In this document: in pieces, positions 2,021-61,500 of the stretch
Layout of the letters: every line of letters starts with the position of its first letter
How positions within the stretch are numbered: the first letter of the stretch is position 1
NCBI GenBank assembly: GCA_965231155.1
Contig: OZ246418.1
Coordinates: forward strand, 42,266 to 106,265
Length of the DNA: 64,000 nucleotides
Direction of reading: 5' to 3'
Source: an uncultured Candidatus Saccharibacteria bacterium
GTDB taxonomy: Bacteria > Patescibacteriota > Minisyncoccia > UBA6257 > 2-01-FULL-56-20
Program-made: the position numbers and the translations under genes
The notes under the pieces: model-generated
What the model was told of the DNA's origin: nothing
Seen by the model: the letters and a program-made list of their open reading frames with translations, nothing else
The model's database searches: none

Positions 2021-2090
2021 GAGCTCAATTATATACTCTTTGAATAACAAATAACAACTTCCATCCCAATATGGAGGAAGGATACCCGAT

Positions 2091-10952: not shown

Positions 10953-11215
10953 AGAATTTGGAAATCTTTATAATGCTTATGCTCAGCATTTTCGACTTCA
11001 ATCTTCTCGACTCGCGCCTCTCGCGGGCCTTTCTTACACCAAGCAATAAACAAATCCAACTGATCATCATCTCCTTCAACTTCGGCCAAAACTGAACCGT
11101 CTGGCATATTCTTTACATAACCAAACACGCCAATAACTTCTGCCATCTTCTTCGTTGTGTCCCTAAAGAAAACATCCTGGACCTTGCCGTATACTTTAAT
11201 AACGAGATGGTTCAT
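10949..11215 (-). CDS. acyP: Acylphosphatase
   Basis: VKVYGKVQDVFFRDTTKK ... GYVKNMPDGSVLAEVEGDDD: acylphosphatase signatures (V-x-G-x-V-Q-G-V-x-F-R and G-x-V-x-N). Confidence 0.8.
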   Translation of the reverse strand: MNHLVIKVYGKVQDVFFRDTTKKMAEVIGVFGYVKNMPDGSVLAEVEGDDDQLDLFIAWCKKGPREARVEKIEVENAEHKHYKDFQIL

Positions 11216-11220
11216 AGCTC

Positions 11221-34195: not shown

Positions 34196-34266
34196 TGCCG
34201 GGTCGTCTAATGGTAGGACAACGGACTCTGAATCCGTTTATCTTGGTTCGAATCCAGGCCCGGCAG
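34196..34266 (+). tRNA. tRNA-Gln (anticodon CTG)
   Basis: Manual cloverleaf: acceptor TGCCGGG/CCCGGCA, D-arm GTCT-AATGGTA-GGAC, anticodon arm ACGGA-CTCTGAA-TCCGT (anticodon CTG), T-arm CTTGG-TTCGAAT-CCAGG, discriminator G. Confidence 0.8.
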
Positions 34267-34360
34267 CAGTCTAGTTTAGTATCGATGGACCAGGAGCTGT
34301 AATAAATGACACCCAATAACCTGGACGGGTTATTAAGAAAACTATACTCTTGTTCTCATA

Positions 34361-38335: not shown

Positions 38336-38340
38336 ATTCA

Positions 38341-39627
38341 CTATTCTAGGGTTAACTTCTTGTCTATTAAGATCAACTTACTTCTAAATGATTGCATCAA
38401 CTCTCGCTTCTCTTCTAAGATTCCATCTTTAAGTAGGTATTTCGCATACGATCGCAAGTCAGTTTTGTTTTGCTCTAACCTTTCTTTCTCGTCTAGGCCA
38501 AGCACCTTATTTCGAAAGTGACCGAACCGCTCCATCTCTTTTTCCAACTTCTGTCTTATGCCAATAGAATTGAGATCAATTTTATCCATAAGCTCCAAGA
38601 GTTGGGCAATTAAGACTTTTTCTTCAATATATCCGCCCTTGCAATTTCTATCTTTGAACCGAGTACAGCCATAATAGATATATTTTGCTATTGTTCCATC
38701 TTTAAGATTCTTATACTTCTCCTCTGCCGATATCCCCGAACCACAAAGCCCGCAGGACATAAGACGAGTGAATGCAAACTCTCCATGCTTTGTCCTGACT
38801 TTCCGCTGAAGCTGCAATTGCTTCTGTGTTGAGTCAAATAGTTCTTTTGTAATAATCGGAATGTGTTTTCCTTGAAACCATCTTCCACTCCCCCGAGGAT
38901 ATTCGTATCTTCCGTAGTAGAAAGTATTGTTAAAAAGAATGTACACATTACTCAACGTAAATGGTTTCCCATTTCTTGATACAAATTTTATTTCACGAAG
39001 CCATTCGTAAACTTTTCTGCCGCTCCAACCCGTTAAAGCAACTTTCTCGAACATTTCTTTTACAATAGGAGCGCGCTCAGGATCAATGAAAATATGGCCC
39101 TTCTCGTCGACATTTTTTGAATTCAGATAGCCAGTAGGCGCTACCGATGGCCAAAGCCCCATCTCGCACTTGGTTTTCAATCCCCTTTTTACATTTATGC
39201 TCTTATTGTCATTCTCTAGTTTTGCCTGGGAGCCAAGAATCATGAGGAGAAATTTCTCATTAGGATTATCAGTGAACCTCTGACTGTAAGTCTTGATCTC
39301 AACTAGTTTCTTTTGATCAAAGAGGTCAACAATTGCTCCGAGATCGCCTGCGTTGCGACTCAGTCGATCTGGATGCCAGACTAGGATACCATTGAACTTA
39401 TCCTCCCGAATGTCGTTAAGAAGCTTGTTGAATACTGGACGTTGTCCACAGTCTTTAGCTGAGTGTGATTCTCTGTAAATATCAGTAACGTTCAGATTGT
39501 CTCGCTGCGCCACCAACAACATCTCCTTTGTTTGAGAGTCTATCGAAAGAGCCTGCTTCTCCTCTGCTTCGCTAGATTTCCTCGCATAGAGGCAGTAACG
39601 GACCTCCTGAGCTATTTCTGTATCCAT
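38341..39627 (-). CDS. Large serine recombinase (resolvase N-domain + recombinase domain + zinc ribbon)
   Basis: YCLYARKSSEAEEKQALSIDSQ catalytic Ser region, then recombinase domain and C-terminal CGLCG...C..C zinc ribbon. 428 aa. Confidence 0.85.
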   Translation of the reverse strand: MDTEIAQEVRYCLYARKSSEAEEKQALSIDSQTKEMLLVAQRDNLNVTDIYRESHSAKDCGQRPVFNKLLNDIREDKFNGILVWHPDRLSRNAGDLGAIVDLFDQKKLVEIKTYSQRFTDNPNEKFLLMILGSQAKLENDNKSINVKRGLKTKCEMGLWPSVAPTGYLNSKNVDEKGHIFIDPERAPIVKEMFEKVALTGWSGRKVYEWLREIKFVSRNGKPFTLSNVYILFNNTFYYGRYEYPRGSGRWFQGKHIPIITKELFDSTQKQLQLQRKVRTKHGEFAFTRLMSCGLCGSGISAEEKYKNLKDGTIAKYIYYGCTRFKDRNCKGGYIEEKVLIAQLLELMDKIDLNSIGIRQKLEKEMERFGHFRNKVLGLDEKERLEQNKTDLRSYAKYLLKDGILEEKRELMQSFRSKLILIDKKLTLE

Positions 39628-39669
39628 ACCCCAATGGATGACGCAGACCTCCGAGGAAGTCCAGGGCTC

Positions 39670-40344
39670 TCAAGAACCCTTTATCAGCCTCACTAATTCG
39701 GCAAACTGATTTGCTCCAATATTTCCTTCGCTAATATATGGCTTTTGAGGATTGCATGTGGCGTATGGAATCTTGGTTAAAAAAGGAACAGCTTCTCTCC
39801 AAATCCGTTCACCGCGCATAACGATGACGACTGGGTTTCTTTTTAAGGCATTCCCAACAAGATGCACCGAGTAACGCTGCGAGGGTAGTAGCTCTCCTTT
39901 CCATTGATACTTAACCGAGTGATAAGGAAAGTACTCAACGCAAAATATCTTTTTGGATAGCTCTTCCCACCCTACATTCACTGCACGCATGAGCGGCCCA
40001 ACCCTTCCTTTCCACCACTCATGCCCGGCTTGCGATACCTCAGCGAGTGCCGGGTTGAAGGGATAAAAAGGATAGTCATCAAACTGATGTAAGAAGTTTG
40101 ATCGAGCAATACTACTGAATAATTCACAGGCTTTTTCTGACCCAGTTTCTAATCCATATCCAGGATTGAGGTTAAGGAGAATAATTGGCGCGTCTGGATT
40201 ACCGACATAAGGAGATGGCAGCTGATCTAATAATATCTTCCCTTTGGGATCACGACATCGATCATTGAAGACTTCGATTGCCTTTTCATCTTCAGAAAAG
40301 ATAAATGGCGGAACTGTAGGCAGATGCGTCCAAGGATTTCTCAT
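39670..40344 (-). CDS. Hypothetical protein (weak uracil-DNA-glycosylase-superfamily-like N-terminal motif)
   Basis: PYVGNPDAPIILLNLNPGYG loosely resembles UDG family motif A. Otherwise ORFan. Confidence 0.35.
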   Translation of the reverse strand: MRNPWTHLPTVPPFIFSEDEKAIEVFNDRCRDPKGKILLDQLPSPYVGNPDAPIILLNLNPGYGLETGSEKACELFSSIARSNFLHQFDDYPFYPFNPALAEVSQAGHEWWKGRVGPLMRAVNVGWEELSKKIFCVEYFPYHSVKYQWKGELLPSQRYSVHLVGNALKRNPVVIVMRGERIWREAVPFLTKIPYATCNPQKPYISEGNIGANQFAELVRLIKGS

Positions 40345-40365
40345 AGCCCGAGGGGATAGGAGTCG

Positions 40366-41178
40366 CTACTCCCCAAATCCATTTTCGACCTTTTCAATAA
40401 ACCCTTCCTTTATAAATGTTTTTCCAGACTCTACCCCAATGCCACTTAGTTTATAGTGGAATTCTCCGAATCCAGGCACGCGATTACAATACTGTCTCTC
40501 CCCTTTTTTAAGATTGTAGAGAGAATGAGATGAAGCTCTTAGTGGGTCATCGAACTCAAAAAGAAAGTTATGAGTCATCAGCCTCCAAAGAGTCCCATTT
40601 TCACTAATACTGAATTCGATATTCTTAATATCCTCAGTCCCATCGTTAAAAAGTTCGAGCATCTTATAACTACGATTAAGACCAAATCTAACATCCACAC
40701 TCGGAATCCGATCGAATTGCAATCCCGCCGTAATAGCTGGAAAATCAGGGTGAATCTGGGAGTGTTTCATAAATAACGGAGCTAACACTTGAGCGGTTAA
40801 AGTCCCCGAGCTCCACTTGTACGAAGCGGCTTCTTCTCGAATAAGATCAATGACCTCAACCGGCAAATCATCTGGAGTGATGAACATCCACTCCTTAATT
40901 CGTAGGCCAATCTTTTTTTGACTTATAGCTTCAGCTAGCTTGCCGATATCTTCTCTTATTTTATTCCGATACTGAGAAAGTTCTTTACGCTCGGGATACA
41001 TCGGACAGTAAACTGCGCAAACAATCTGCTCATTTTTAATGTAACCGTCCACTCCCGAATCATGCCACTCTTTAAGACTTTGAAAGTTCTTTCCGTACTC
41101 AGCTCCTAAGACAGTATTTACCAATCTTTTAAACTCAATCGGATCTTCTATTTTCCGGATACGTGCGTATATATTCAT
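40366..41178 (-). CDS. Hypothetical protein with Mrr-cat-like N-terminal segment
   Basis: EFKRLVNTVLGAEYGKNF...HDSGVDGYI resembles restriction-endonuclease-like core (FE..l...G....DgGiDg). Remainder unknown. Confidence 0.35.
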   Translation of the reverse strand: MNIYARIRKIEDPIEFKRLVNTVLGAEYGKNFQSLKEWHDSGVDGYIKNEQIVCAVYCPMYPERKELSQYRNKIREDIGKLAEAISQKKIGLRIKEWMFITPDDLPVEVIDLIREEAASYKWSSGTLTAQVLAPLFMKHSQIHPDFPAITAGLQFDRIPSVDVRFGLNRSYKMLELFNDGTEDIKNIEFSISENGTLWRLMTHNFLFEFDDPLRASSHSLYNLKKGERQYCNRVPGFGEFHYKLSGIGVESGKTFIKEGFIEKVENGFGE

Positions 41179-41339
41179 AGGTTGGAGTGATTATATTCCT
41201 ACCCCATCTCAATATCCAGTTGAAAGACTGGACGAAGAGCTGTCGACAACTCCCCCTTCGCAAGGTCCCAGATCTAAGCTAGGAATGGACAAGAAAGGTC
41301 GAAAATCGGTACAATTCCTTTACAACTAAATAGCCGTAA

Positions 41340-41545
41340 GGCAGAGACCTAAACCCTCGGAGCAATCCGGCGGCATGGTCTACGAAGTCCCTTGGAAGAC
41401 ACTGAACCCCGCGTTCAGCGACTCTTCCAAGGGCCATACTGGGAAACTGGTATGGGGTCGTAAGACCTAGCTGATGCGGGGTTTAGTGTTTCTCCACCCC
41501 GCAAGACATAAACCACCTCTGTCGGGGTGAATACTATTTATTAAT
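41340..41545. ncRNA. Candidate structured non-coding RNA (nested hairpins, two GNRA tetraloops), strand undetermined
   Basis: Perfect 11-bp stem CCCTTGGAAGA...TCTTCCAAGGG enclosing inner 6-bp stem CTGAAC/GTTCAG (41389-41433); CCATACTGG-GAAA-CTGGTATGG (41434-41456); GGTC-GTAA-GACC; GCGGGGT...ACCCCGC. No ORF of at least 60 aa in a 370-bp gap between divergent genes. Confidence 0.3.
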
Positions 41546-41548
41546 TTT

Positions 41549-42229
41549 ATGCGTCTCATCTACGAAGAACCGCAGTCCATGGGAGGAGTTCTCAAAATCT
41601 ACGAGGACAAGATCGTCTACAAATCCGCCTATCTCAACCCAGAACAAACAATCCTTACCAAGCAAATTGTTTCCGTAAATCTTTCTGCTTTGCTACCTCA
41701 AGTGATTTTGGAAATGACGGGTAATCAGAAAGTTTCCATCACCACTAGCGACAAAGAAAAGATCCGAGAAACTATTCTGGATGTCATTAGTGGGACCGCC
41801 AAACCCCACCACGCAGAAGAAGTTTCTCCAGTCAGTGAACCAGAGCAACAGGAAGAAAAACCAGAACATGATGCTACCAAGAAGAAATGGGCGATATTTG
41901 GATTTGTCATTATCCTCATATGCGTAGTCGGAATATTCACAAGCGGGAGTAATTCATCACTAGTCTCTTCACTTCAAGGGAATAGATTTATGGCCGCCGC
42001 CGAAGCCGAGGGCTACGCCAAAGATCTACTTCGAAAAGAAGGATACTTAAATATAAAGCTTGGATCTTTCCCGACGATTAACGAGAATCCAGAAAAGACC
42101 ACATTCTATATCGAAAATACCTTCTCGGCAGAGATCTATGCCCGAGGTATACAAGGGACTTATGTAGCCATCGTTTCCTTCGCCCATGGTTCATATGAAG
42201 TAACAGATATCGCTTTCGAGAGAGACTAA
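41549..42229 (+). CDS. Single-pass membrane protein, unknown (N-terminal PH-like beta region, acidic linker, TM, C-terminal domain)
   Basis: TM segment WAIFGFVIILICVVGIF. No catalytic motif. Confidence 0.4.
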   Translation: MRLIYEEPQSMGGVLKIYEDKIVYKSAYLNPEQTILTKQIVSVNLSALLPQVILEMTGNQKVSITTSDKEKIRETILDVISGTAKPHHAEEVSPVSEPEQQEEKPEHDATKKKWAIFGFVIILICVVGIFTSGSNSSLVSSLQGNRFMAAAEAEGYAKDLLRKEGYLNIKLGSFPTINENPEKTTFYIENTFSAEIYARGIQGTYVAIVSFAHGSYEVTDIAFERD

Positions 42230-42233
42230 TTTC

Positions 42234-42620
42234 TTAAGAGATTGGAGGATCATCTCTATCCTTATCCAGTCGCGCCACATCTTCGAGAAGTTTCTTGAAC
42301 AATTCAGTTGCCTCTCTCATCTGCGAATTATTTTCCTCCCGGGATCTCATGTAGCGAGGATGGTTGTTATCGAGATAATACTTCGTCGCGGGAAAACTCC
42401 CTTTTTGAGCCATGACTAAGAGATTCCCTTCCATGAGATCGTTCTTATTATCCCTGCCACGTCCTAGGGCCTTGCCCATCTCCCTATCAAATCGAGAATC
42501 CCCATCTCTCCATCGGTAAATATGCGCTCGCGAGATACCGGCACGCTTCGAAGCAATACTGATATTGGCAGTTTCCTCTAGGACCTCCAGAAACTTCTTT
42601 TTATCCGCATGGCTTTTCAT
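42234..42620 (-). CDS. HTH protein resembling phage terminase small subunit
   Basis: SIASKRAGISRAHIYRWRDGD helix-turn-helix. Size, basic charge and position directly downstream of a ParB-methylase are typical of phage packaging modules. Confidence 0.4.
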   Translation of the reverse strand: MKSHADKKKFLEVLEETANISIASKRAGISRAHIYRWRDGDSRFDREMGKALGRGRDNKNDLMEGNLLVMAQKGSFPATKYYLDNNHPRYMRSREENNSQMREATELFKKLLEDVARLDKDRDDPPIS

Positions 42621-43956
42621 CTATTTTTACCGCTTTTTCTCCCGTTAGTTTTTCCCATCTTTTCTTGATCACCTCGGCGTAGATTGGCTGCTTCTCCATG
42701 AGATAGCATCGTCGCTTCATCCGGGTGGCGGCAATAAGCGTACTGCCACTTCCTCCAAAGGGTTCAACGATCAGATCGCCACGCTTGGTAAGGACTTTGA
42801 TGTAGGGAATAAGAATCTCCAATGGCTTTGTCCCGAATATAATCCCCTGTCCCGAGCTTTTCTCATCTGATGCCTTGTACCCTATGAAATCAGTTGGCTG
42901 GATCTTCTTCCCATGTTCGTAGCCTTCCCACTGGGGCTTCCCGGAGATGGCATAGAGGGCCGTTTCATATTCTTCTTGGAGGAGCTGATCTTCTGGTTCC
43001 ATGTGCATGTTCTCTTTGTCTTCTGAACTTCCAACCATAGCGATATCGTGCTTAGAGAAGAACTTGTACTTGGCCGCGAACCCTTGGGTACGGTTAGGTA
43101 GGTGCCACACGATCATGTTTTTGACCTTCCAGTACTTTTCCATCTCACCCCAGATGATCCGGAGATTCTTCCAATTCTCGTAGACAATGATGTGGAAGTT
43201 CGGCTTGGCAATCTCGGCGATGTTCGCCATCCAGAGTTCAGTGAAGTTGGATGGCAAGGTATCGGTGCCAATATATCTACGATCACGCTTCAAGCCAAAG
43301 CCTTCGATTGCTTCACCATGCTTCTTCTTGCCCTTCAGATAGTCGAGAATGTACGGTGGGTCAGTGAAACACATGTCGGCTCGTTCCTCCCCCATGAGCT
43401 TCAAGACGTCATCTCTCTCCATACTGTCCCCGCACATGAGACGCGAACCGCCAAGATCATAAACATCACCAAGCTTGGTCTCGATACTGTTGATATCCAA
43501 CTTCTCTAGTTCTTTCTGGATATCAAAGACTTCTGGCGTTTCTTCTTCCGGAAAGATGTCATCTAACTCTTCACTTGAGAAACCAATGTCCTTCAGTAAC
43601 GACTCATCGAACTCGGCCAACAAGGAGAGGTCGAACTCTCCGGTATTCTTGTTGAGCCGGATGATCAACTCTTCTTCTTTCTTCAGATCAGCAATGTGGA
43701 CATAAACGACGGGGATCTCCTCGAGGCCCATCGACTTCGCAACCTCGAAACGGAAGTTGCCGCCCACGATCACCCCCTCCCGACCCTCGGCCGAGTTGAC
43801 GATCAAAGGATCAACTAACCCATGCTGCTCGATACTTTCCCTCAACTGCGCCGTGGCCTCCTTAGACCAGACTCGTGGATTCCGTTCCGGATGTCGAAGG
43901 GACGACAAGGGAACATAACTAACCTGCAGCTTATCGCTGCTTTGTGTTGTGTACAT
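42601..43956 (-). CDS. ParB-like nuclease domain fused to beta-class N4/N6 DNA methyltransferase
   Basis: N-terminal ParB/Srx motif (GGNFRFEVAKSMG); MTase motif IV FTDPPY precedes motif I VEPFGGSGST (beta-class order). Confidence 0.8.
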   Translation of the reverse strand: MYTTQSSDKLQVSYVPLSSLRHPERNPRVWSKEATAQLRESIEQHGLVDPLIVNSAEGREGVIVGGNFRFEVAKSMGLEEIPVVYVHIADLKKEEELIIRLNKNTGEFDLSLLAEFDESLLKDIGFSSEELDDIFPEEETPEVFDIQKELEKLDINSIETKLGDVYDLGGSRLMCGDSMERDDVLKLMGEERADMCFTDPPYILDYLKGKKKHGEAIEGFGLKRDRRYIGTDTLPSNFTELWMANIAEIAKPNFHIIVYENWKNLRIIWGEMEKYWKVKNMIVWHLPNRTQGFAAKYKFFSKHDIAMVGSSEDKENMHMEPEDQLLQEEYETALYAISGKPQWEGYEHGKKIQPTDFIGYKASDEKSSGQGIIFGTKPLEILIPYIKVLTKRGDLIVEPFGGSGSTLIAATRMKRRCYLMEKQPIYAEVIKKRWEKLTGEKAVKIDEKPCG

Positions 43957-45131: not shown

Positions 45132-45332
45132 CTAGAACCACCGTTTCACCCCCTTGTGATGAGAACAAGTTCCTTGGCGAGTTTTACTCGTGCTGTACGT
45201 TCCATCTTTACACTGGGCGGTAATACGCGGCTGTTTATATACGGGAATGGAAGTCTTAGCCTGCACCGGAGAGGAAGCTGCTGGGATTAAGAGCATGCCA
45301 AGTGCCATGCCGAAAAACAACTTATTCTTCAT
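45132..45332 (-). CDS. Small secreted DUF3761-like protein
   Basis: Signal peptide, then CKDGTYSTSKTRQGTCSHHKGVKRW, matching the DUF3761 C-DG-YS-S...GTCS-HGGV-W pattern. Confidence 0.55.
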   Translation of the reverse strand: MKNKLFFGMALGMLLIPAASSPVQAKTSIPVYKQPRITAQCKDGTYSTSKTRQGTCSHHKGVKRWF

Positions 45333-50182: not shown

Positions 50183-50674
50183 TTAGTATTTCATGAACTC
50201 ACCGATCGAACCGTCTTTTCCCAGGGCAAAGATAGTCCACTCTCCGGTTTTCTGACCAGGCATACCAGGTGATCCCGCAGGCATGCCGGGCAAAGCGATA
50301 CCCTTGATATCCGGCTTTTCGGTCAGTAGTTTATTAATGATCTCAAGCGGAATATGGCCTTCGATCACATAGTCTCCGATCACCGTCGTATGACAGCTCT
50401 GTAGATTGGCTGGAATACCATACTGGTTTTTGATCGGAGTAAGATCAGGAAGATTTTCTATTTTCACCGACAGGCCTTCGTGCTTCAGATATTCAGCGTA
50501 GACCTGACAACAGCCGCAGGTGGGAGTTTTGTAGACGGTCGCCTGAAGGGCTAATCCCACAGTACCAGTTTTTGGAGCCTCCTGACTATTCGTAAAGGTA
50601 CCGATAAGAACCAGACCGCCGATCACCACCACCGCTCCGAGAAACAAGATTTTGTTTGTAGCATATTTTTTCAT
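50183..50674 (-). CDS. DUF411-like periplasmic metal-binding protein
   Basis: Signal anchor, then TCGCC motif characteristic of DUF411 proteins, often found in copper-resistance loci. Met/Pro/Gly-rich GMPAGSPGMPG segment. Confidence 0.5.
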   Translation of the reverse strand: MKKYATNKILFLGAVVVIGGLVLIGTFTNSQEAPKTGTVGLALQATVYKTPTCGCCQVYAEYLKHEGLSVKIENLPDLTPIKNQYGIPANLQSCHTTVIGDYVIEGHIPLEIINKLLTEKPDIKGIALPGMPAGSPGMPGQKTGEWTIFALGKDGSIGEFMKY

Positions 50675-50687
50675 GAGTGAGTGATTT

Positions 50688-51290
50688 TTATTTGGACCAA
50701 GCCTTTTCCCAACTCCGCATCATCTCAATCTCTTTGGACTGCGAGGTGATAATCTGATCGGCCAATTCTTTCATCTCCGCCCGATCGGTTGTCGAGGCAA
50801 GCATCCGGGCCATCATCACCGCCATCTCGTGATGCGGAATCATCTGTCGGATAAACTCTAAGTCAAAATCTTTGGCGCTACTTAAAACATCTAAATCTCC
50901 ACTCATACTATCCATATGCATCATACCGCCACCCATCATACCCATACTTTGATTCGTTGCCGGAACCTGCGCGCCAAACCAATTCTCGTACCATCCTTTC
51001 ATACTCACGATCTCGCGCTGTTGTGCTTCAATAATTCCATTCGCCAAAGAAAGTATCTCCGGCCGTTTTGATTTTTTGAGCGCCAGTTCGGCCATCGCGA
51101 TCGCCCCGTCGTGATGCGGAATCATCTGCTCAATGAAATGCTGATCGATATTTCCCATCATTGATCCGCTTGAACCTCGATAGAAACCTCCCATCATTCC
51201 TCTCATTCCCCATCCACCGAAGAGCAGTGGCGTAAGAAGTACGCCGACTAACACTCCTCCTAAACCAACGATTATGTTTTCTTTTGTCAT
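50688..51290 (-). CDS. DUF305 protein (tandem duplicated, copper-resistance associated)
   Basis: Two copies of the MIPHHxxA...M motif (MIPHHDGAIAMA and MIPHHEMAVMMA). Met/Gly-rich linker. Confidence 0.7.
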   Translation of the reverse strand: MTKENIIVGLGGVLVGVLLTPLLFGGWGMRGMMGGFYRGSSGSMMGNIDQHFIEQMIPHHDGAIAMAELALKKSKRPEILSLANGIIEAQQREIVSMKGWYENWFGAQVPATNQSMGMMGGGMMHMDSMSGDLDVLSSAKDFDLEFIRQMIPHHEMAVMMARMLASTTDRAEMKELADQIITSQSKEIEMMRSWEKAWSK

Positions 51291-51301
51291 GTTTTTATTA
51301 T

Positions 51302-53287
51302 TTATAAAGTTTTCTGTCGCAGTAGCACAGCATTCACCGCCACAATTACTGTGGAGAGGGACATGAGTGCTGCTGCTAATGCTGGCTCAAGAAACAATCC
51401 CCACGTCGCGAATACTCCAGCAGCTAACGGAATGGCAATCACGTTGTACCCCGTAGCCCAGAAAAGATTCTGGATCATCTTCCGATAGGTCAGACGAGAA
51501 AGTTTGATGATCTTCACAATGTCTCTCGGATCATTTCTGACGAGAATTATTCCCGCTGATTCAATGGCCACATTCGTTCCTGCGCCAATTGCTATCCCCA
51601 AGTCTGCTTGTGTGAGCGCCGGAGCGTCATTGATCCCATCCCCCACCATAGCGACCTTTTTGCCCTGTTCTTGAAGCAGTTTCACTTTTTCCGATTTATC
51701 TTTCGGCATAACGCGGGCAAAGTAGTCATCAAGGTTCAATTCTTTGGCCACCCAGCGAGCGACATCCTCAGCATCTCCCGTAATCATCATCACCTTTACT
51801 CCTGTGCTCTGAAGGTCACGGACCGCATCCCGGGATTCTTCGCGAATAATATCGGCGAGAGCGATAGCACCAACAAGCGCATCATTTTGGATAACATACA
51901 CAACAGTTTTTCCTTCTTCGGAAAGCGTGGCGACTTTCCGCTTGAACTCCTCTCCTCCTGCAATATGCTTACCTAGAATCAACGACTCGCTCCCCACCAC
52001 TACTTTATTTCCGCCGACTGTCGCGGCCGATCCCTGTCCGGGTAAACGAGTAAATTCTTCGATTCGCGGCAAAGAAATGTTTCTCTTCTCGGCTTCGCGA
52101 ATGATTGACTTGGCGATGGGATGCTCCGACTGGCTATCAACGGCGGCGGCCAAAGCGAGAACTTCTTCCTCGCTCTTGCTTTCTGCGGGAATGATATTAG
52201 AAACTCCGAACTCACCGCGAGTGAGCGTTCCTGTCTTATCGAATAGAACCGTATCAATATTTCTGGCCGCTTCGAGCGCCAAACGTTGCTTTACCAAAAA
52301 TCCATTCTGAGCAGCTTTCGTTGTAGATATAGAAGCCACTAACGGAATGGCCAAACCAAGTGCATGGGGACAAGCGATGACCAAAACCGCGACCATCCGC
52401 TCGATCGCAAACGAAGGCTCGGCAAAGAAAAGCCAAGCAATTAAAGTAGCTAAGCCGGTCGCGATAGCAATGATCGTGAGGTAATATGCGGCTCTATCTG
52501 AAAGTATCTGCAAGCGAGACTTCGAGGCTTGAGCTTCGGAAACAAGCCGCATCACTCCAGCTAAAAATGTATGCTCACCAATTTTATTTATTTTAACGGT
52601 GAGGGAGCCATCACCATTTACTGTTCCAGCGATTACCTCATCTCCTTCTTTTTTAGAGACTGGCTTTGATTCTCCGGTCGCTACTGACTCGTTTACTTCG
52701 GAGGTTCCTTCTAGGACCATACCATCAGCAGGAATTGTGCTTCCAGGTCGGACCAAAACCATATCTCCTTCCTTGAGTTGATCGAGAGGAATCACCACTG
52801 TCTTACCATCACGAATAACCTCGGCTTGATCCGGCAGAAGTTTAGAAAGCTCCTTCAAAGCACCTTGAGCACCGGAGACTGCTCGCATTTCGATCCAGTG
52901 TCCAAGAAGCATGATCGTAATCAGAGTTGCTAGTTCCCAGAAAAGAGTATGCGATTCTCCTCTTAAGAAAATGTAAAGACTATAGATATATGCTACCGAA
53001 ATCGCGAGAGAAATCAGGGTCATCATTCCCGGCAGTTTGGCCTTGATTTCGTTCTGGGCGCTTTTTATAAATACCCACCCTCCATACAAGAAGATGATTG
53101 AAGAAAGTATCGGAGAAATAAACTGCCACCCAGGAAACAAAGGTGGTTGCCAGTTAAAAAGCATCGGGACGATATCCGAGTAAAGTAATACCGGAATCGT
53201 TAATACAAAAGATACGAGGAATTTCTTTTTGAAGGCTTCCGTATGATGCCCAGCGTGCTTATTGAACTTATGTATATTGTGGTCCAT
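51302..53287 (-). CDS. copB: Copper-translocating P1B-type ATPase (CopB-like, His-rich N-terminus, no HMA domain)
   Basis: CPH motif in TM6 (IACPHALGLA), DKTGTLT phosphorylation site, GDGINDAP hinge. N-terminal HKFNKHAGHH. Confidence 0.9.
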   Translation of the reverse strand: MDHNIHKFNKHAGHHTEAFKKKFLVSFVLTIPVLLYSDIVPMLFNWQPPLFPGWQFISPILSSIIFLYGGWVFIKSAQNEIKAKLPGMMTLISLAISVAYIYSLYIFLRGESHTLFWELATLITIMLLGHWIEMRAVSGAQGALKELSKLLPDQAEVIRDGKTVVIPLDQLKEGDMVLVRPGSTIPADGMVLEGTSEVNESVATGESKPVSKKEGDEVIAGTVNGDGSLTVKINKIGEHTFLAGVMRLVSEAQASKSRLQILSDRAAYYLTIIAIATGLATLIAWLFFAEPSFAIERMVAVLVIACPHALGLAIPLVASISTTKAAQNGFLVKQRLALEAARNIDTVLFDKTGTLTRGEFGVSNIIPAESKSEEEVLALAAAVDSQSEHPIAKSIIREAEKRNISLPRIEEFTRLPGQGSAATVGGNKVVVGSESLILGKHIAGGEEFKRKVATLSEEGKTVVYVIQNDALVGAIALADIIREESRDAVRDLQSTGVKVMMITGDAEDVARWVAKELNLDDYFARVMPKDKSEKVKLLQEQGKKVAMVGDGINDAPALTQADLGIAIGAGTNVAIESAGIILVRNDPRDIVKIIKLSRLTYRKMIQNLFWATGYNVIAIPLAAGVFATWGLFLEPALAAALMSLSTVIVAVNAVLLRQKTL

Positions 53288-53299
53288 AGATCTAAAAAT

Positions 53300-53569
53300 T
53301 TATTTCTTCTTTGATCGTTTATAGACGGTCATAATCTCCTTCATAGCCTGTGCCTCCTTACCACTCTTCATCTGCTCAACCACATGAGTCGTGAGGTGAT
53401 TTTCTAATAAAAGATCTTCGACACTCGATAAGGCCTCTTTGATCGCCGAAGACTGAGTGATGATGTCTATGCAATATTTCTCCTCATCGACCATGCGCTC
53501 CAATCCCCGTACCTGTCCCTCGATCCGATGCAACCGAGAAGTTAATTTATTTTTAATGTCTTTTCTCAT
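53300..53569 (-). CDS. csoR: CsoR/RcnR-family metal-sensing repressor
   Basis: RLHRIEGQVRGLERMVDEEKYCIDIITQSSAIKEA: CsoR signature with Cys (C-x-D-I) and the His/Cys ligand set. Confidence 0.8.
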   Translation of the reverse strand: MRKDIKNKLTSRLHRIEGQVRGLERMVDEEKYCIDIITQSSAIKEALSSVEDLLLENHLTTHVVEQMKSGKEAQAMKEIMTVYKRSKKK

Positions 53570-53574
53570 AACCC

Positions 53575-53599
53575 CATTATACCCCCCTAGGGTATAATG
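53575..53599. promoter_or_regulatory. 25-bp palindrome CATTATACCCCCCTAGGGTATAATG: CsoR-box-like operator (ATACCC-N-GGGTAT) with symmetric -10 TATAAT hexamers on both strands (divergent promoter)
   Basis: Perfect 10-bp arms around a CCCTAGGG core, seen directly. Sits 6 nt upstream of the csoR start and about 180 nt upstream of the first cassette gene on the + strand. Confidence 0.5.
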
Positions 53600-53616
53600 T
53601 CAACATCCTGTTAAAA

Positions 53617-53756
53617 CTGTCTCATTTGTCTCATTTAGCCCTAGACCGAGACGGGTCAGTTATTACCCTATTCTGACCCCCAAAGAACCCTTATACTGAT
53701 TGAAAGTTCCTGGTACTAGACCGAGGAACACAGCCACCTTGAGATAGGTTCCTCGG
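53617..53756 (+). repeat. Leader repeat copy 1 (modules W gtctcatttgtctcattt, X gaccgagacgggtcag, Z tatactgattgaaagttcctggtactagaccgaggaacacag...ccaccttgagataggtt) upstream of gene 53777
   Basis: Roughly 140 nt, highly similar to 59288-59470 upstream of unrelated gene 59515. Ends in hairpin CCTCGG-gtc-CGAGG that pairs with the GAGGAG RBS. Confidence 0.5.
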
Positions 53757-54823: not shown

Positions 54824-54868
54824 CCCGTCCGAGGAGGGTCAAAAGGTAAGATAAAGAAACTTAAGAAA

Positions 54869-54914
54869 AGCCTCTGGTGGTCTCACTTTTTAAATATCCG
54901 AGACCGAGGAGGCC
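54869..54914 (+). repeat. Y-module hairpin copy 1 (CCTCTGGTGGTCTC-actttttaaatatcc-GAGACCGAGGAGG) pairing RBS with upstream CCTC
   Basis: One of three near-identical copies (also at about 55605-55650 and 56735-56773), each 10-20 nt upstream of a different start codon. Confidence 0.5.
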
Positions 54915-54922
54915 AGACGGCC

Positions 54923-55558: not shown

Positions 55559-55604
55559 TGCTCGAGATGGATTGGAACGGTAGCATAAAGAAACCTCAGA
55601 AAAA

Positions 55605-55650
55605 CCTCTGGTGGTCTCACTTTTAAAATATCCGAGATCGAGGAGGCCAG
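55605..55650 (+). repeat. Y-module hairpin copy 2
   Basis: cctctggtggtctcacttttaaaatatccgagatcgaggaggccag; followed by an X-like gagaccgagacggatca segment. Confidence 0.5.
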
Positions 55651-56157: not shown

Positions 56158-56688
56158 ATGCGCAAAAGAAATCTTGGGAAGCTTGAACAATACGATTATA
56201 TCGATGACGAATTTATTGGAGAAACCAGCCCTGATTATATCGAAGCTATCGGCCTATTTGTGCTTGAATTTAGCGCTCTGGAACATGAAATAAATTTACG
56301 AATTGCAGATCAAATTAACGATAGAGCACACTTTCAAGGATATCAGGTCATTGAACTTTTATCCTCAAAAGATAAGATTGATTTATTTTCGAGATGGGTT
56401 GGCGCTTATATGGTCATGGGCAATAGTAAAAAGAAAACTCGATTTAATCGCCTCGTTCAAAAGCTTCGAGAATTAAATGCATTTCGAAATAAAGTTCTGC
56501 ATGCCAATTGGATGTCTGCGGCTAAGGATGGCACAGTTAGAACTCGTATCGTCATCAACGAGGGAGAAGGCGCTGTTCGCTTCGAGAGAACAAAAATCAC
56601 TCCAACATTAATTAATAAAAAATCGGAAGAATGCTCCAGGGCGAGAGATGAGCTCGATGAGATTATGGAGGGAGCTTATAACAGCTAG
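56158..56688 (+). CDS. Hypothetical protein with HEPN-type R-N-x3-H motif
   Basis: LRELNAFRNKVLHANWM (RNxxxH), very similar in local context to the motif in gene 53777 (N-[DA]-[AF]-R-N-x-[IV]-[IL]-H-[NA]-N). Start codon overlaps previous stop (TAAAATG). Confidence 0.4.
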   Translation: MRKRNLGKLEQYDYIDDEFIGETSPDYIEAIGLFVLEFSALEHEINLRIADQINDRAHFQGYQVIELLSSKDKIDLFSRWVGAYMVMGNSKKKTRFNRLVQKLRELNAFRNKVLHANWMSAAKDGTVRTRIVINEGEGAVRFERTKITPTLINKKSEECSRARDELDEIMEGAYNS

Positions 56689-56734
56689 ACCGAGACGGGT
56701 CAGTTACTCCCCTACTACGACCCTCAGAAAACCC

Positions 56735-56773
56735 TTTGGTGGTCTCACTTTTTAAATATCCGAGACCGAGGAG
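56735..56773 (+). repeat. Y-module hairpin copy 3, preceded by X-module copy (56686-56736)
   Basis: tagaccgagacgggtcagttactcccc...aaccctttggtggtctcactttttaaatatccgagaccgaggag. Confidence 0.5.
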
Positions 56774-56877
56774 TCCCATTATAAAAAACGGCGTATTCAG
56801 GTTTTGAATGACTAGACTTAATGTCATTTATATCTCATAATTTCCCCAGCTTTTCCAAAACCTTAGGGAGGACACTC

Positions 56878-58188
56878 ATGGCACAAGAAAACACTGCGGT
56901 TCAAGACGCTGGAGCTTCCCCAATGGAAGCGGATCTTCGAAACATTCCCATTGATCTCATCGATCCAGATCCTCGTCAACCCCGCACCGACTTCGACGAA
57001 GAAGCCCTAAATGCGCTGGCCGAGAACATAGAGGCAGTAGGGGGCTTACTCCAAACCGTTGTAGTTCGTCCATCACCTACTGATCCGGGTCGCTTCATGC
57101 TGATCGGTGGCGAACGGCGATACCGTGCTTCGAAAAAAGCCGGGTCAAGCACTCTTCCTTGCATCGTCCGGCAGGGCGATAGGATTCCCTTCGTCATGTC
57201 TATGGTTGAGAACATGCTCCGGGCAAGTCTCAACCCCATCGAAGAGGCGCGCGCCTTTAGACGATGCCACGACGAGTATGGGATGTCGTATCACGAGATT
57301 GACCGAACTTTCAAATTCAAACGAAAGAAATCGGAAAACGTGGTGCGCCTTCTGGAACTGCCGGAAGAAATTCAGCAAATGGTGGAGAACGGCACATTGC
57401 CGCCAAGCTATGCGCTGGGTTTACATCAGTACGCTGAAACCCGAGACGTCGTCGCCATGGCCTACGCCCTTGCCGATGGACGTGATCCCGGGGTTGTCTT
57501 GCCAAAACGGAAGACAAAATATGTTAAAGGTGAGCCGAAACCAACGGAGTTTCGAGAGTATTTCCTGTTAGCCAAACAGAGTGATCGTGTGAGAAGACTC
57601 GCCGATGCACTTCTGGCACACGACACAGGGATACAGCGTCGGGCGTGGATGAAGAACTCACGCACGAGCAGAACGAACCTTCAACTCAATCTTCGTGCCA
57701 TGGCAATTGCCTTCGGGCAAATGACTGCTCGACTCGAAGATCTCGAGAAACCATCAACAGTAACGTTCTCGCCTGCGTCAGAAGCCAAGTCGAGCCCTCT
57801 TACTCGGCCGACAACTCCGCCCAAGAAACCGACGCAGGAAAAATGGTTACCTCTCCCGGACGAAAGCACCTTCGAAAAAATCGCTGGAGTAATTCGATTG
57901 GTCTCCTTTGATCGCAGGGGAGGTAGACTTGCCTACCTGAGCGAAGAACGTCTCAAGCGGAAGGGATGCTCACCGGAACTCCTCCTCGAAGCCTTACGAG
58001 TTTTTCGAGATCAGTGGAATCGAGAACCGGCCACAGGGAATACTCAGGTAGAACGAGAATTCCTGGGGTTTCTCAAGGGAACTCGCGAAAATTCCGGGTG
58101 TAACCAGTTTTTCAGTTTTATCGGAAAACTCAGAGATCTAGATACCTCCGAAGATCCAGTTCCTCTGAGCCCCCTATCAGACGACTAA
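56878..58188 (+). CDS. ParB/Srx-domain protein with long Pro/Thr/Arg-rich C-terminal extension (GC-rich gene)
   Basis: LIDPDPRQPR...LLQTVVVRP...LIGGERRYRASKKAG: ParB N-terminal domain with GERRxRA motif. RBS AGGGAGG 7 nt upstream of ATG at 56878. Codon usage distinctly GC-rich. Confidence 0.65.
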   Translation: MAQENTAVQDAGASPMEADLRNIPIDLIDPDPRQPRTDFDEEALNALAENIEAVGGLLQTVVVRPSPTDPGRFMLIGGERRYRASKKAGSSTLPCIVRQGDRIPFVMSMVENMLRASLNPIEEARAFRRCHDEYGMSYHEIDRTFKFKRKKSENVVRLLELPEEIQQMVENGTLPPSYALGLHQYAETRDVVAMAYALADGRDPGVVLPKRKTKYVKGEPKPTEFREYFLLAKQSDRVRRLADALLAHDTGIQRRAWMKNSRTSRTNLQLNLRAMAIAFGQMTARLEDLEKPSTVTFSPASEAKSSPLTRPTTPPKKPTQEKWLPLPDESTFEKIAGVIRLVSFDRRGGRLAYLSEERLKRKGCSPELLLEALRVFRDQWNREPATGNTQVEREFLGFLKGTRENSGCNQFFSFIGKLRDLDTSEDPVPLSPLSDD

Positions 58189-58212
58189 AACCCTCATCGT
58201 GAGGGTTTTTTA
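58188..58212. terminator. Rho-independent terminator shared by convergent ParB-like and sigma54-activator genes
   Basis: AAAACCCTCA-tcg-TGAGGGTTTT followed by TTATT. Begins at the ParB-like stop codon. Confidence 0.8.
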
Positions 58213-58240
58213 TTACTGAAAATAAAAATCCGTCATAAGG

Positions 58241-59206
58241 TTATGACGGAAGTTGAACTGGTGAACCGCTACTTTGATACTCACTCAAACGGTTATAAAG
58301 AGTCTTCAAAGAAATTCCCAGGCTTGCTGATGCCGCTTGCTTATTGCCTTTATGGTATTCAAGCGCTGCCAAGATGTGTTCTCTCTCGATATCAACCAGC
58401 GGGCGCGGGGTATGAGATGGTGCAAGTTGATTCTTAACCGGAGAGCCTCCTCGAACACGATCCGGAATATGCTCAAGACCAACTTCCCTTTCAGAAAGTA
58501 CGGTTGCCCGCTCCATAACGTTCAGCAGCTCCCGAACATTGCCGGGCCAGCTGTAACGCAGGAGATGAGTCAAGGCATCCTTGGCGATAGTCTTCCGATA
58601 GATCTCGAGTCTGTTCCTGATCAAGACTTCAATATCTTCTGGACGATCGCGCAACGCAGGCATGGTCAGATCGAGAACGCTCAGACGATAAAAGAGATCT
58701 TCTCGGAACGTTTGTTCTCGGACCATTTTCCACAGATCCCGATTTGTTGCTGCAATAATACGAACATCGGTCTTCTGCGCCTGATCGCTGCCCAAGGCGA
58801 AAATCTCACCATTATCTAGGAAGCGAAGTAGCTTTGATTGAAGCGACAAGGACAACTCCCCTATCTCTTCCAACAAAACCGTACCCCCATTAGCAGTCAT
58901 CAATACTCCTGGCCTATTTTCTAACGCTCCGGTGAACGACCCTCGAGTATGACCAAAAGCCATGGAATGCCAGAGATCTTCTTGGTGGATATATGTTCCA
59001 TCAACCACGGCCAGTGATTTGTGCTCTTGCCCTCGAGGACTTTTTTCGTGGATAAACTGAGCCAGTGCGGACTTGCCTGTGCCCGTTTCTCCGCCAATCA
59101 GTATGACACTACCAGTTTGAGCAAAACGTTCTGCTCGTGCCAAAGCTTCCTGCATGAGACGACTCGCCGCAACCCATTTCATATGAACTCCCCTCTCATC
59201 GAACAA
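58241..59206 (-). CDS. Sigma-54-dependent transcriptional activator, AAA+ core plus Fis-type HTH, no sensory/receiver domain (PspF-like)
   Basis: GETGTGKSALAQ Walker A, GSFTGAL (GAFTGA equivalent), GTVLLEEIGEL Walker B, RIIAATN, FREDLFYRL, WPGNVREL, C-terminal ASLGISLKTLYNRL HTH. Probable true start at internal MKWVAASR (59182). Confidence 0.85.
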   Translation of the reverse strand: MFDERGVHMKWVAASRLMQEALARAERFAQTGSVILIGGETGTGKSALAQFIHEKSPRGQEHKSLAVVDGTYIHQEDLWHSMAFGHTRGSFTGALENRPGVLMTANGGTVLLEEIGELSLSLQSKLLRFLDNGEIFALGSDQAQKTDVRIIAATNRDLWKMVREQTFREDLFYRLSVLDLTMPALRDRPEDIEVLIRNRLEIYRKTIAKDALTHLLRYSWPGNVRELLNVMERATVLSEREVGLEHIPDRVRGGSPVKNQLAPSHTPRPLVDIEREHILAALEYHKGNKQAASASLGISLKTLYNRLSEYQSSGSPVQLPS

Positions 59207-59287
59207 CTGCCTCTATCTAAGAGGAAATACTTTCTCCTGTCAAACACAAAGAGTCACTCAGTGTCGATATCGTTGCAAGTCTCAAAA

Positions 59288-59470
59288 ACCGTCTCGTTTG
59301 TCTCATTTTTACCCGACCAAGGTGGGTCAGCAACTCCCCTGTTCCTACCCAAAAAACCCTTACACTGATTGAAAGTTCCCAGTACTAGACCAAGGAACAC
59401 AGTAACTGAGCGAGAGCGAAGGAGTACTGAGGTTAGTAGGCCGAATGTGCCACCTTGAGATAGGTTTCCA
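59288..59470 (+). repeat. Leader repeat copy 2 (W-X-Z modules with a ~45-nt insertion) upstream of gene 59515
   Basis: gtctcgtttgtctcattttt...gggtcag...aacccttacactgattgaaagttcccagtactagaccaaggaacacag...ccaccttgagataggtt; compare 53617-53756. Confidence 0.5.
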
Positions 59471-60864: not shown

Positions 60865-61500
60865 TCACAGAAGGAAGGCGCCTCCCCTAGCCTTCTCTTC
60901 GCTGGTCATCCAAGCGTCGTAGGCAGCTGCGACACAACCGTCGACAACCATGCCAGCGATCATCTTGTCATACCAAGACTGAACGCCAGAACAAGCGACG
61001 ACCAAACCACTACGCTTCACCCCTCCCCAGAAAGGTGTGTCGCCGGGGAAGAGGAGATGCGGCATGACGTCGGTACGGTCGTCATTCCGATCGTGCCAGA
61101 GCTGAAGCGCCTTACAACGAGCGATATCGCTATAGGGGTGCTCCCACTCCTTCGGGTTACCGAACGAGCGCTCGTAAAGCGCCATCGGCTCGATGACGTA
61201 GTTCGGCCACTTCGGATAATCTCCAGCCCGATCATTTTCCATCGAGGGAACAAGAATCACAACGTGGCAGTGTTGCCGTTTCGGACCGAAGGGGCTGGGT
61301 CGACTCTCGGTACCCATGGCCAACCTCAGAACCTCCTCGACGACAACCTCCGCAACCTCTCGGTTGAGGAACCGAGGAACAAGCTTACCGGACATACAGC
61401 TCCTTTCAATCACTCCCAGATCCTGAGAGTTACTAATTAATTTTATAATACACAAATAAACATTTGTCAATTCTGAAAGACGCGGAGTTTTCTCCCTCAC
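60865..61500 (-). CDS. Hypothetical protein (GC-rich)
   Basis: 211-aa ORF with GC-rich codon usage. No recognisable motif. Start uncertain (several internal Met). Confidence 0.3.
   Translation of the reverse strand: MREKTPRLSELTNVYLCIIKLISNSQDLGVIERSCMSGKLVPRFLNREVAEVVVEEVLRLAMGTESRPSPFGPKRQHCHVVILVPSMENDRAGDYPKWPNYVIEPMALYERSFGNPKEWEHPYSDIARCKALQLWHDRNDDRTDVMPHLLFPGDTPFWGGVKRSGLVVACSGVQSWYDKMIAGMVVDGCVAAAYDAWMTSEEKARGGAFLL

Follow-up and report, generated by a model that had tools for sequence, protein, structure and literature searches.

A ParB-like protein with an orphan C-terminal domain and a convergent sensor-less AAA+ activator in an accessory region of a Candidatus Saccharibacteria genome

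Background

We report the analysis of two convergent genes, one for a ParB-like protein and the other for an AAA+ transcriptional activator of the sigma-54-dependent type, that lie side by side in a 64-kb stretch of DNA from an uncultured Candidatus Saccharibacteria bacterium (contig OZ246418.1). The whole of this stretch is referred to here as the window, and positions are given within it unless another locus is named. The original prediction, made from the letters of the window, described a GC-rich pair with a shared terminator, an activator lacking a sensor domain and a possible capture of both genes by an array of repeat-bounded cassettes. We examine each of these proposals by domain, structure and profile searches, by comparison with a second locus that carries the pair, and by motif scans. 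Our best reading is that the pair is one self-contained regulatory module of ~2.5 kb, horizontally acquired and lying in an accessory part of the chromosome.

Results and discussion

A convergent pair with separate promoters and terminators

The likely start codon of the ParB-like gene, the ATG at 56878, has GGGAGG ahead of it and yields a protein of 436 amino acids in agreement with public gene calls; the likely start of the activator, the ATG at 59182, is preceded by GGGGAG. The two genes converge across an intergenic gap of 52 bp, and the features of the locus are collected in Table 1. Each gene has its own candidate sigma-70-type promoter. That of the ParB-like gene was found by a consensus scan, and its arrangement is kept upstream of the orthologue in a second locus, L005 (TGGACT...CATAAT). 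That of the activator was missed by the strict consensus scan and was read from the sequence; its TTGACA and an A/T-rich -10 element are kept in L005 and in another locus, L006. The single textbook terminator that the genes had been said to share is actually a back-to-back pair of strand-specific hairpins, 19 nt apart, which have an A/T tract in common, and both hairpins are kept in L005 with compensatory changes.

In raw composition the pair is indeed GC-rich, at 52.3% for the ParB-like gene (z 2.5) and 49.2% for the activator (z 1.5) against 60 other open reading frames (ORFs) of the window (mean 44.1%, sd 3.3), with 38-44% in the small genes on both sides. The GC content of third codon positions (GC3) is barely elevated, however, at 51.0% (z 1.2) and 45.5% (z 0.25), so that the excess resides mostly at codon positions 1 and 2 and comes from amino-acid composition. 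Three other ORFs of the window equal the pair in GC richness. GC-rich ORFs without a Pfam family occur at 60865-61500 on the minus strand (GC 53.9%, GC3 60%) and at 32601-34025, also on the minus strand (GC 52.2%, GC3 51%).

The ParB-like protein joins a conserved CTPase half to an orphan domain

In the 455-residue ORF, Pfam recognises ParB_N (77 bits, residues 38-132) and HTH_ParB (PF17762, 45 bits, residues 136-210), a ParB-type helix-turn-helix (HTH), and nothing beyond residue 210; the protein also reaches 117 bits against TIGR00180, for which the cut-off is 58. The CTPase boxes are intact, with Box I reading IDPDPRQPR, Box II GERRYRA (GxxR) and Box III ENMLRA (ENxxR), and the HTH is likewise conserved. 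Residues 19-200 align to ParB structures, the best matches in the PDB being ParB of M. xanthus, Caulobacter and Thermus and Spo0J of Bacillus, followed by Noc and then by KorB (E 1e-29 to 1e-30 for chromosomal ParB, 6e-12 for KorB). Phage ParB-like PHROGs are matched by the same half.

The accompaniments of chromosome partition are missing from the protein and from its surroundings. The ParA-binding motif LG(R/K)GL is absent from all four members of the family defined below and present in 106 of 118 canonical ParB matches. No parA lies beside the gene, which is flanked by the activator and by small genes of unknown function, Pfam finds no PF23552 dimerisation domain in the protein, and there is no parS-like site within 25 kb of the gene, the three weak matches to the canonical parS consensus in the window being at chance level. 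We therefore reject a canonical partition ParB as an identity for this protein, which is in addition 140 residues longer than chromosomal ParB.

What replaces the usual C-terminal region has no counterpart in the family collections: residues 205-436 match nothing in Pfam, PHROGs or NCBIfam. An AlphaFold2 (AF2) model of this 232-residue half has an overall predicted local distance difference test score (pLDDT) of 57, with helices at fragment residues 18-86 and a score below 50 for fragment residues 90-116, and a Foldseek search of the PDB with the model was uninformative. An exhaustive HMMER search of 1.84 billion representative proteins with a profile of the half returned its own cluster and two distant proteins, P0243 (422 residues) and P0244 (500 residues); a match to P0242 is made up of 13 separate stretches of a 2,027-residue protein and was set aside as repetitive. 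With the C-terminal profile a second search, of 5.8 billion protein clusters, added no members to these four, a scan of JGI metagenomes gave nothing beyond a JGI contig already known, and a scan of IMG/VR gave nothing viral; tblastn with the C-terminal half found no match in 72,556 plasmids and 50,697 phage records. As far as its sequence tells, then, the C-terminal domain is an orphan that defines a family of four members. The last 19 residues of the protein are identical in both close orthologues, and a tail of the form (K/R)(D/N)xD(T/N)SxDP(V/I)xL ends the domain in all four, which also have the ParB half in common.

The distant members offer a hint as to the company this domain keeps. The gene for P0243 (locus L088, 22-1290, plus strand, on a contig of 1.9 kb) is convergent with a sigma-70-family gene (L088, 1331-1912, minus strand), the C-terminal 193 residues of whose product carry Sigma70_r3 and Sigma70_r4. 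This is a single case, and it again places a factor that acts on RNA polymerase opposite the ParB-like gene. The contig of P0244 stops at the P0244 gene. A recent survey reports proteins in which the ParB-CTPase fold is fused to Sigma70 domains (PMC12704722).

The activator consists of an AAA+ core and an HTH domain

The convergent gene encodes Sigma54_activat (PF00158, 178 bits), AAA_lid_14 and a Fis-type HTH_8 (PF02954, 49 bits). Its Walker A motif begins as early as residue 31, and no more than eight additional in-frame codons precede the likely start, which leaves no N-terminal sensor domain and confirms the absence of a regulatory domain that had been noted at the outset. The core had further been called complete; this holds at the level of domains, including the HTH, and does not hold for the Walker A and Walker B motifs, which are atypical and are taken up below. 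The arginine fingers and both sensors, I and II, have been preserved (FREDLFYRL, GNVRELLN), and the GSFTGA form of the loop motif is common to 70 of 118 homologues.

Among proteins of known structure the closest are ZraR (1OJL, 198 bits) and NtrC4 (4L4U, 194 bits), then FlrC, NtrC1 and FleQ, with PspF at 127 bits. The comparison with PspF made by the original prediction is apt for the architecture, which lacks a sensor, and fails for the sequence, since the protein attains 181 bits against the PspF equivalog TIGR02974, far from the cut-off of 443.55, and stands nearer to ZraR and NtrC. On the same grounds a PspF orthologue was rejected. No NCBIfam equivalog is reached, and there is no PspA domain among the neighbours of the pair.

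The pair recurs at a second locus with different neighbours

Among 5.8 billion protein clusters the closest match to the activator is P0001, with 69% identity, and all others have 47% or less; those that carry a name come from Oligoflexia, Nitrospirota, Bacteroidota and Planctomycetota, phyla outside the Candidate Phyla Radiation (CPR), in keeping with the non-CPR donor that had been anticipated for this gene. The sole full-length relative of the ParB-like protein in the clusters is P0122 (59%), the other matches covering only the N-terminal 37-55%, and a scan of 185,579 GTDB species representatives with the ParB-like alignment found no relative. P0001 and P0122 are encoded next to each other, again convergently, in L005 (ENA contig k141_284899), where the neighbours differ from those in the window (patatin, a DUF218 protein, a GIY-YIG protein) and a tRNA-Gln lies 1.1 kb off. 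The L005 pair has a GC content of 54-57% and a GC3 of 58-62%, as against a GC3 of 34-47% in its neighbours, a pattern that fits a more GC-rich donor, with further amelioration in the window genome. Foreign origin, as first suspected, is thus plausible, and conserved synteny with normal GC in relatives was not what we found.

Between the two copies of the pair the synonymous sites are saturated (proportion of synonymous differences, pS, 0.71-0.88), and the proportion of nonsynonymous differences (pN) comes to 0.19 in the activator. In the ParB-like protein pN is 0.29 over the N-terminal part, 0.34 over the middle and 0.17 over the C-terminal part. The orphan C-terminal domain is accordingly the most constrained segment of that protein and the middle part the least conserved. 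Saturated synonymous sites together with conserved proteins indicate an old unit in which both genes are under purifying selection, and make a recent capture unlikely; the linkage of the pair has outlived that of every other neighbour.

L005 also contains, 2.5 kb away from the pair, an ORF without a Pfam family (10309-11277; GC 59%, GC3 70%), upstream of which there is a weak -24/-12-like site (9857-9871).

A short non-coding element accompanies the pair

A non-coding element of ~48 nt, which we call Z, is present in a single copy in the window, as an insertion in leader copy 2 (one of the repeat modules described below) relative to leader copy 1. L005 has three copies, all within ~1 kb of the pair (7866-7943, 8743-8790), of which two form a tandem directly ahead of the promoter for the ParB-like protein and the third stands upstream of the next gene. 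None of 80 other Patescibacteria loci, ~0.4 Mb in all, contains Z. Every copy is situated 50-130 nt upstream of a start codon and on the same strand as the ParB-like gene, and Z may be regarded as a candidate binding site for either the ParB-like protein or the activator.

A possible partnership of the two proteins

We tentatively propose that the ParB-like protein acts in trans as a partner to the activator, which it would either deliver or restrain. Its N-terminal half would bind a specific DNA site and close as a CTP-dependent clamp, as KorB, VirB and BisD do, loading on DNA perhaps at Z. The helical C-terminal domain with its acidic tail would take the place of the usual dimerisation domain and is most likely a protein-protein interface; that the orphan domain is the most conserved segment, and the tail invariant between orthologues, suggests a specific partner. 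As the activator lacks a sensor, its activity has to be set in trans or by how much of the protein is present. In a delivery model, after BisD and BisC, the C-terminal domain would tether the activator or carry it along the DNA to target promoters, whereas in a restraint model, after PspA and PspF or HrpV and HrpS, it would hold the activator in check. Remodelling of RNA polymerase by the activator would follow at its putative target promoters, which may be sigma-54-dependent. A more general form of this idea, which we consider improbable, is that a ParB-family clamp with a dedicated C-terminal domain would carry or gate a factor that remodels RNA polymerase, AAA+ here and of the sigma-70 family in the distant relative, with sliding delivery in place of looping from an enhancer, and this in a CPR genome of very small size that is not known to employ sigma-54.

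Several observations weigh against this partnership, and the first group concerns the activator itself. At positions that are invariant or nearly so among 118 homologues, the Walker A motif has GKS for GKE (E in 115), the Walker B motif EE for DE (D in all 118), residue 62 is glycine in place of cysteine (C62G; C in all 118) and ESELFGH has become HSMAFGH (E in 113 and 115, respectively). Further changes are N61 to D, E95 to M or V, and two small insertions. The changes at near-invariant positions are common to both orthologues, that of the window and that of L005. Such substitutions at catalytic positions mean that the ATPase activity of the protein, or its coupling, may be unusual. In enhancer-binding proteins the Walker B glutamate and a switch asparagine form the glutamate switch, which couples the state of the bound ATP to the GAFTGA loop (PMC7175178), and the coupling network is accordingly remodelled in the present protein.

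A second group concerns sigma-54. As had been observed at the outset, rpoN is not visible in the window, nor was it found in the loci L001 and L005: no Sigma54 domain occurs in window ORFs of at least 349 residues, and translation in all frames gives no RpoN-box peptide for the window, L001 or L005. Sites resembling TGGCAC-N5-TTGC (at least 8 of 10 positions matched) number 10 in the window and 14.3 +/- 3.1 in shuffled sequence, so that the search for GG-N10-GC promoters that the original prediction called for revealed no enrichment. None of these -24/-12-like sites lies near the pair, and the window yielded no credible -24/-12 promoter. Two sites match at 9 of 10 positions. The better placed (45307-45293, TGGCAC-N5-ATGC) falls inside a 66-residue signal-peptide ORF (45132-45332, minus strand), and such matches arise by chance in coding sequence; the other, at 7874, is inside a gene. 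In the literature we found nothing relevant on sigma-54 or rpoN in CPR/Patescibacteria, nor on pairs of ParB and bacterial enhancer-binding proteins (bEBPs).

The third group concerns the linkage. The evidence is purely genomic, the pair being known from two independent loci, to which a suggestive distant locus adds one case of a ParB-like gene paired with a sigma factor, and adjacency could reflect co-transfer in place of cooperation. Convergent genes with separate promoters and terminators are not an operon. Z does not keep to one side of the pair, its position differing between the window and L005, and is not palindromic. Finally, other sensor-less bEBPs (P0077, P0009) have no ParB neighbour.

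The main rival, which we judge unlikely, though it stands up best of the alternatives, is this: two independent regulators that co-travel on a small transferred fragment, the ParB-like protein as a stand-alone regulator or silencer of nearby genes after the manner of KorB and VirB, the activator as a constitutive bEBP controlled solely through its expression. An own promoter and terminator for each convergent gene, the other sensor-less bEBPs without a ParB neighbour and a linkage seen in two lineages only are all as this explanation would have them. It accounts less readily for an adjacency and orientation that survived synonymous saturation while other neighbours changed, for an orphan domain that is the most conserved part of its protein and has an invariant tail, as though fitted to a specific partner, or for the distant member P0243, which is again convergent with a factor directed at RNA polymerase.

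Flanking repeats and the question of cassette capture

The repeat modules reported around the pair are real, as a repeat search and a motif scan both establish. Their order begins with X1 and leader 1 (53641-53733), after which come genes A and B, then Y1, gene C, Y2 and finally genes D and E; X2 with Y3 precedes the pair, and X3 with leader 2 and Z follows it, ahead of genes F and G. X2 with Y3 belongs to two repeat families, D8 (85% to 53641-53692) and D4 (71-89% to 54842 and 55576). X-type direct repeats thus flank the pair on both sides (56685-56736, 59305-59350), and the Y modules end in GAGGAGG, a Shine-Dalgarno sequence, directly ahead of start codons.

From this arrangement came the proposal that an integron-like cassette array took up the pair as cargo, with X, Y and the leader repeats as recombination sites. 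The bracketing X repeats, the similar modules that separate the neighbouring small same-strand genes, the GC content of the pair above that of the array and the behaviour of short-read assemblies, in which Logan contigs break exactly at the repeats and one of 2,612 bp contains the pair only, all lend it some colour. Breaks at repeats are expected anyway, however, and no integrase or recombinase stands beside the array, which adjoins a copper ATPase and a csoR-like gene. The repeats have no attC-type R''/L''-L'/R' structure, fold no better than shuffled sequences (z -1.8 to +0.2) and match nothing in Rfam. A search via the flanking genes for an empty-site variant retrieved the same arrangement only, the divergence from L005 opposes a recent capture, and the Shine-Dalgarno end of Y suits a leader or promoter module just upstream of a gene. 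Capture by the array is therefore weakly supported and in our estimation improbable. A classical integron was rejected, since the array has neither an IntI integrase beside it nor sites resembling attC. The X, Y and leader modules may instead be shared intergenic promoter and leader sequence; L005 carries related modules, so they are possibly nothing other than that.

Genomic setting

The host is a member of CPR/Patescibacteria, as originally suggested: among GTDB species representatives the CTP synthase of the window (18206-19825) matches mainly Patescibacteria, with a best identity of 87%, and a few matches bear other or generic names. A housekeeping block at 12-34 kb (PGK, pyrG, PBP2, mreB, a class II tRNA synthetase, dnaX) ends at a tRNA-Gln(CTG) at 34196, which marks the boundary to accessory genes, and the pair is located in the accessory stretch of ~30 kb beyond it. 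The part of this stretch nearest the tRNA, 34196-43956, may be an integrated element; also among the accessory genes are a major facilitator superfamily transporter and a DUF218 protein, followed by the copper cluster and then by the small same-strand genes with interleaved repeats. Ahead of the copper cluster is a perfect TTGACA-16-TATAAT promoter, which overlaps a C/G-rich palindrome (53576-53603).

Table 1. Positions of the gene pair and of surrounding features in the window
Feature	Position	Strand	Description
ParB-like gene	56878-58188	+	436 aa; full ORF 56821-58188 (455 aa)
ParB-like residues 1-204	56878-57489	+	ParB-CTPase fold and ParB-type HTH
ParB-like residues 205-319	57490-57834	+	Long helices, then Pro-rich and predicted disordered (AF2 model)
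ParB-like residues 320-436	57835-58188	+	Compact C-terminal domain (five helices predicted) and acidic tail LRDLDTSEDPVPLSPLSDD
AAA+ activator gene	58241-59182	-	313 aa; full ORF 58241-59206
Candidate sigma-70-type promoter of ParB-like gene	56813-56841	+	TAGACT-17-CATAAT; consensus scan
Candidate sigma-70-type promoter of activator	59214-59243	-	TTGACA, 17-18 nt, TAGATA; read from the sequence
Intrinsic terminator of ParB-like gene	58187-58209	+	10-bp stem, then T run
Intrinsic terminator of activator	58250-58229	-	9-bp stem, then T run; overlaps activator stop codon
X2+Y3	56685-56778	+	Starts at stop codon of upstream 176-aa gene
Degenerate X3 and leader copy 2	59305-59402	+	Family D7, 91% to 53679-53733
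Y1 and Y2 modules	54842-54916, 55576-55650		
Z element	59403-59450	+	~48 nt, non-coding; ..GGAGTACTGA..AG.AG..CGAA.GTGC
PIN-TPR giant (PIN-TPR-GreABC)	within 34196-43956		1324 aa; after tRNA-Gln
Large serine recombinase	38341-39627		
ParB_N and N6_N4 methyltransferase fusion	42601-43956		
Copper-resistance-like cluster	50183-53603		DUF411, DUF305, P-type ATPase, csoR-like ORF
P-type ATPase of copper cluster	51302-53287		
csoR-like small ORF	~53300-53569	-	

This setting bears on a further explanation, that the pair is the remnant of a maintenance and regulatory region of a plasmid, integrative and conjugative element (ICE) or prophage, in which the ParB-like protein bound a centromere and the activator regulated the element, neither now serving the host. 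The serine recombinase and the ParB_N-methylase fusion in the stretch after tRNA-Gln point that way, as do the tRNA-Gln 1.1 kb from the pair in L005 and the PHROG matches of the ParB-like N-terminal half and of the activator (PHROG 7998); phage records matched by the activator in tblastn have only ~40% identity and are uninformative, several being named or annotated as bacterial genomes. Strong purifying selection on both genes, the absence of parA, ParA-binding motif and parS, and a C-terminal domain unmatched in the plasmid, phage and IMG/VR collections make such a remnant very improbable. Least probable is an anti-phage defence module with the ParB-like protein as sensor or nuclease, a context that the original prediction had also raised: the ParB fold is found in some defence systems, and GmrSD and the PIN-TPR protein are present in the window, though distant, yet PADLOC gives no match for the ParB-like protein, only the generic AAA+ and HTH part of RtcR models for the activator and a single marginal match among eight small flanking genes, and the ParB-like architecture is of the HTH_ParB clamp type, not the nuclease type. 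A known anti-phage defence system was rejected accordingly.

Other features of the window include a GmrSD-type restriction endonuclease (296-2191, minus strand); three tandem paralogous ORFs of ~590 residues each, with repeat families D1-D3 and D6 and no Pfam match (7381-12993, minus strand); a VirD4/TraG-like coupling ATPase amid the housekeeping genes (15403-17775, minus strand); and a LOOT RNA (Rfam RF03000, 77.5 bits) at 41346-41468 on the plus strand, between unknown genes of the accessory region.

Relation to known systems

For the proposed trans partnership of the ParB-like protein and the activator, the nearest parallel is BisD of ICEclc in Pseudomonas, the ParB half of which binds CTP and bisS sites. 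Beyond a disordered linker of some length BisD has an all-alpha domain for which no homologues are known, and this extra domain activates promoters only in concert with BisC, the product of another gene of the same ICE locus (PMC12409273). The ParB-like protein resembles BisD in architecture: its ParB half, with CTPase and HTH, is likewise followed by a linker, predicted to be disordered, and by a C-terminal domain that is predicted to be all-alpha and has no known homologues. At both loci there is a transcription factor gene and no role for ParA. The partner is an AAA+ bEBP here and the FlhC-like BisC in ICEclc, and the present genes are convergent, encode a ParB-like protein of 436 residues (550 in BisD) and have no evident ICE context.

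KorB, with KorA or TrbA, of plasmid RK2 and VirB of Shigella are ParB-family CTPases that regulate transcription (PMC11790492, PMC13584720, PMC10770331), and with them the ParB-like protein shares a ParB-CTPase and HTH suited to gene regulation and not to segregation. KorB relies on a small partner protein; it is a weaker match than chromosomal ParB, and its C-terminal domain and class of partner differ from those of the present protein.

On the side of the activator, bEBPs without a regulatory domain in cis are known to be under trans control, which PspA exerts on PspF and HrpV on HrpS (PMC7057263). Like these the activator has AAA+ and HTH domains only and needs regulation in trans, for which a conserved neighbour is the obvious candidate. 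It departs from them in its score against the PspF model, in having no homologue of PspA or HrpV, in its atypical catalytic motifs and in that neither a sigma-54 gene nor a target promoter was found; from ZraR and NtrC, the closest AAA+ and HTH cores, it differs in having no receiver domain and in its GKS, EE, C62G and HSMAFGH substitutions. Each protein is a new member of a known superfamily, and it is the combination, together with the orphan C-terminal domain, that is new among regulators made up of a ParB-type clamp and a partner.

Conclusions

ParB-family CTPases are increasingly recognised as regulators beyond segregation, with KorB, VirB and BisD as examples, and the control of sensor-less AAA+ activators is known for a few cases, by PspA and HrpV. 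The pair described here would join both themes, in that a ParB-type clamp with a unique partner domain stands beside a bEBP and, in a distant relative, beside a sigma factor. It would furthermore provide a rare case of sigma-54-type machinery among Patescibacteria, which have a minimal regulatory repertoire. Should the interaction not be real, the locus would hold merely an uncommon pair of transferred regulators; if it is true, two proteins and an element of ~48 nt would make a small and tractable system in which to study the clamp-mediated delivery of an activator.

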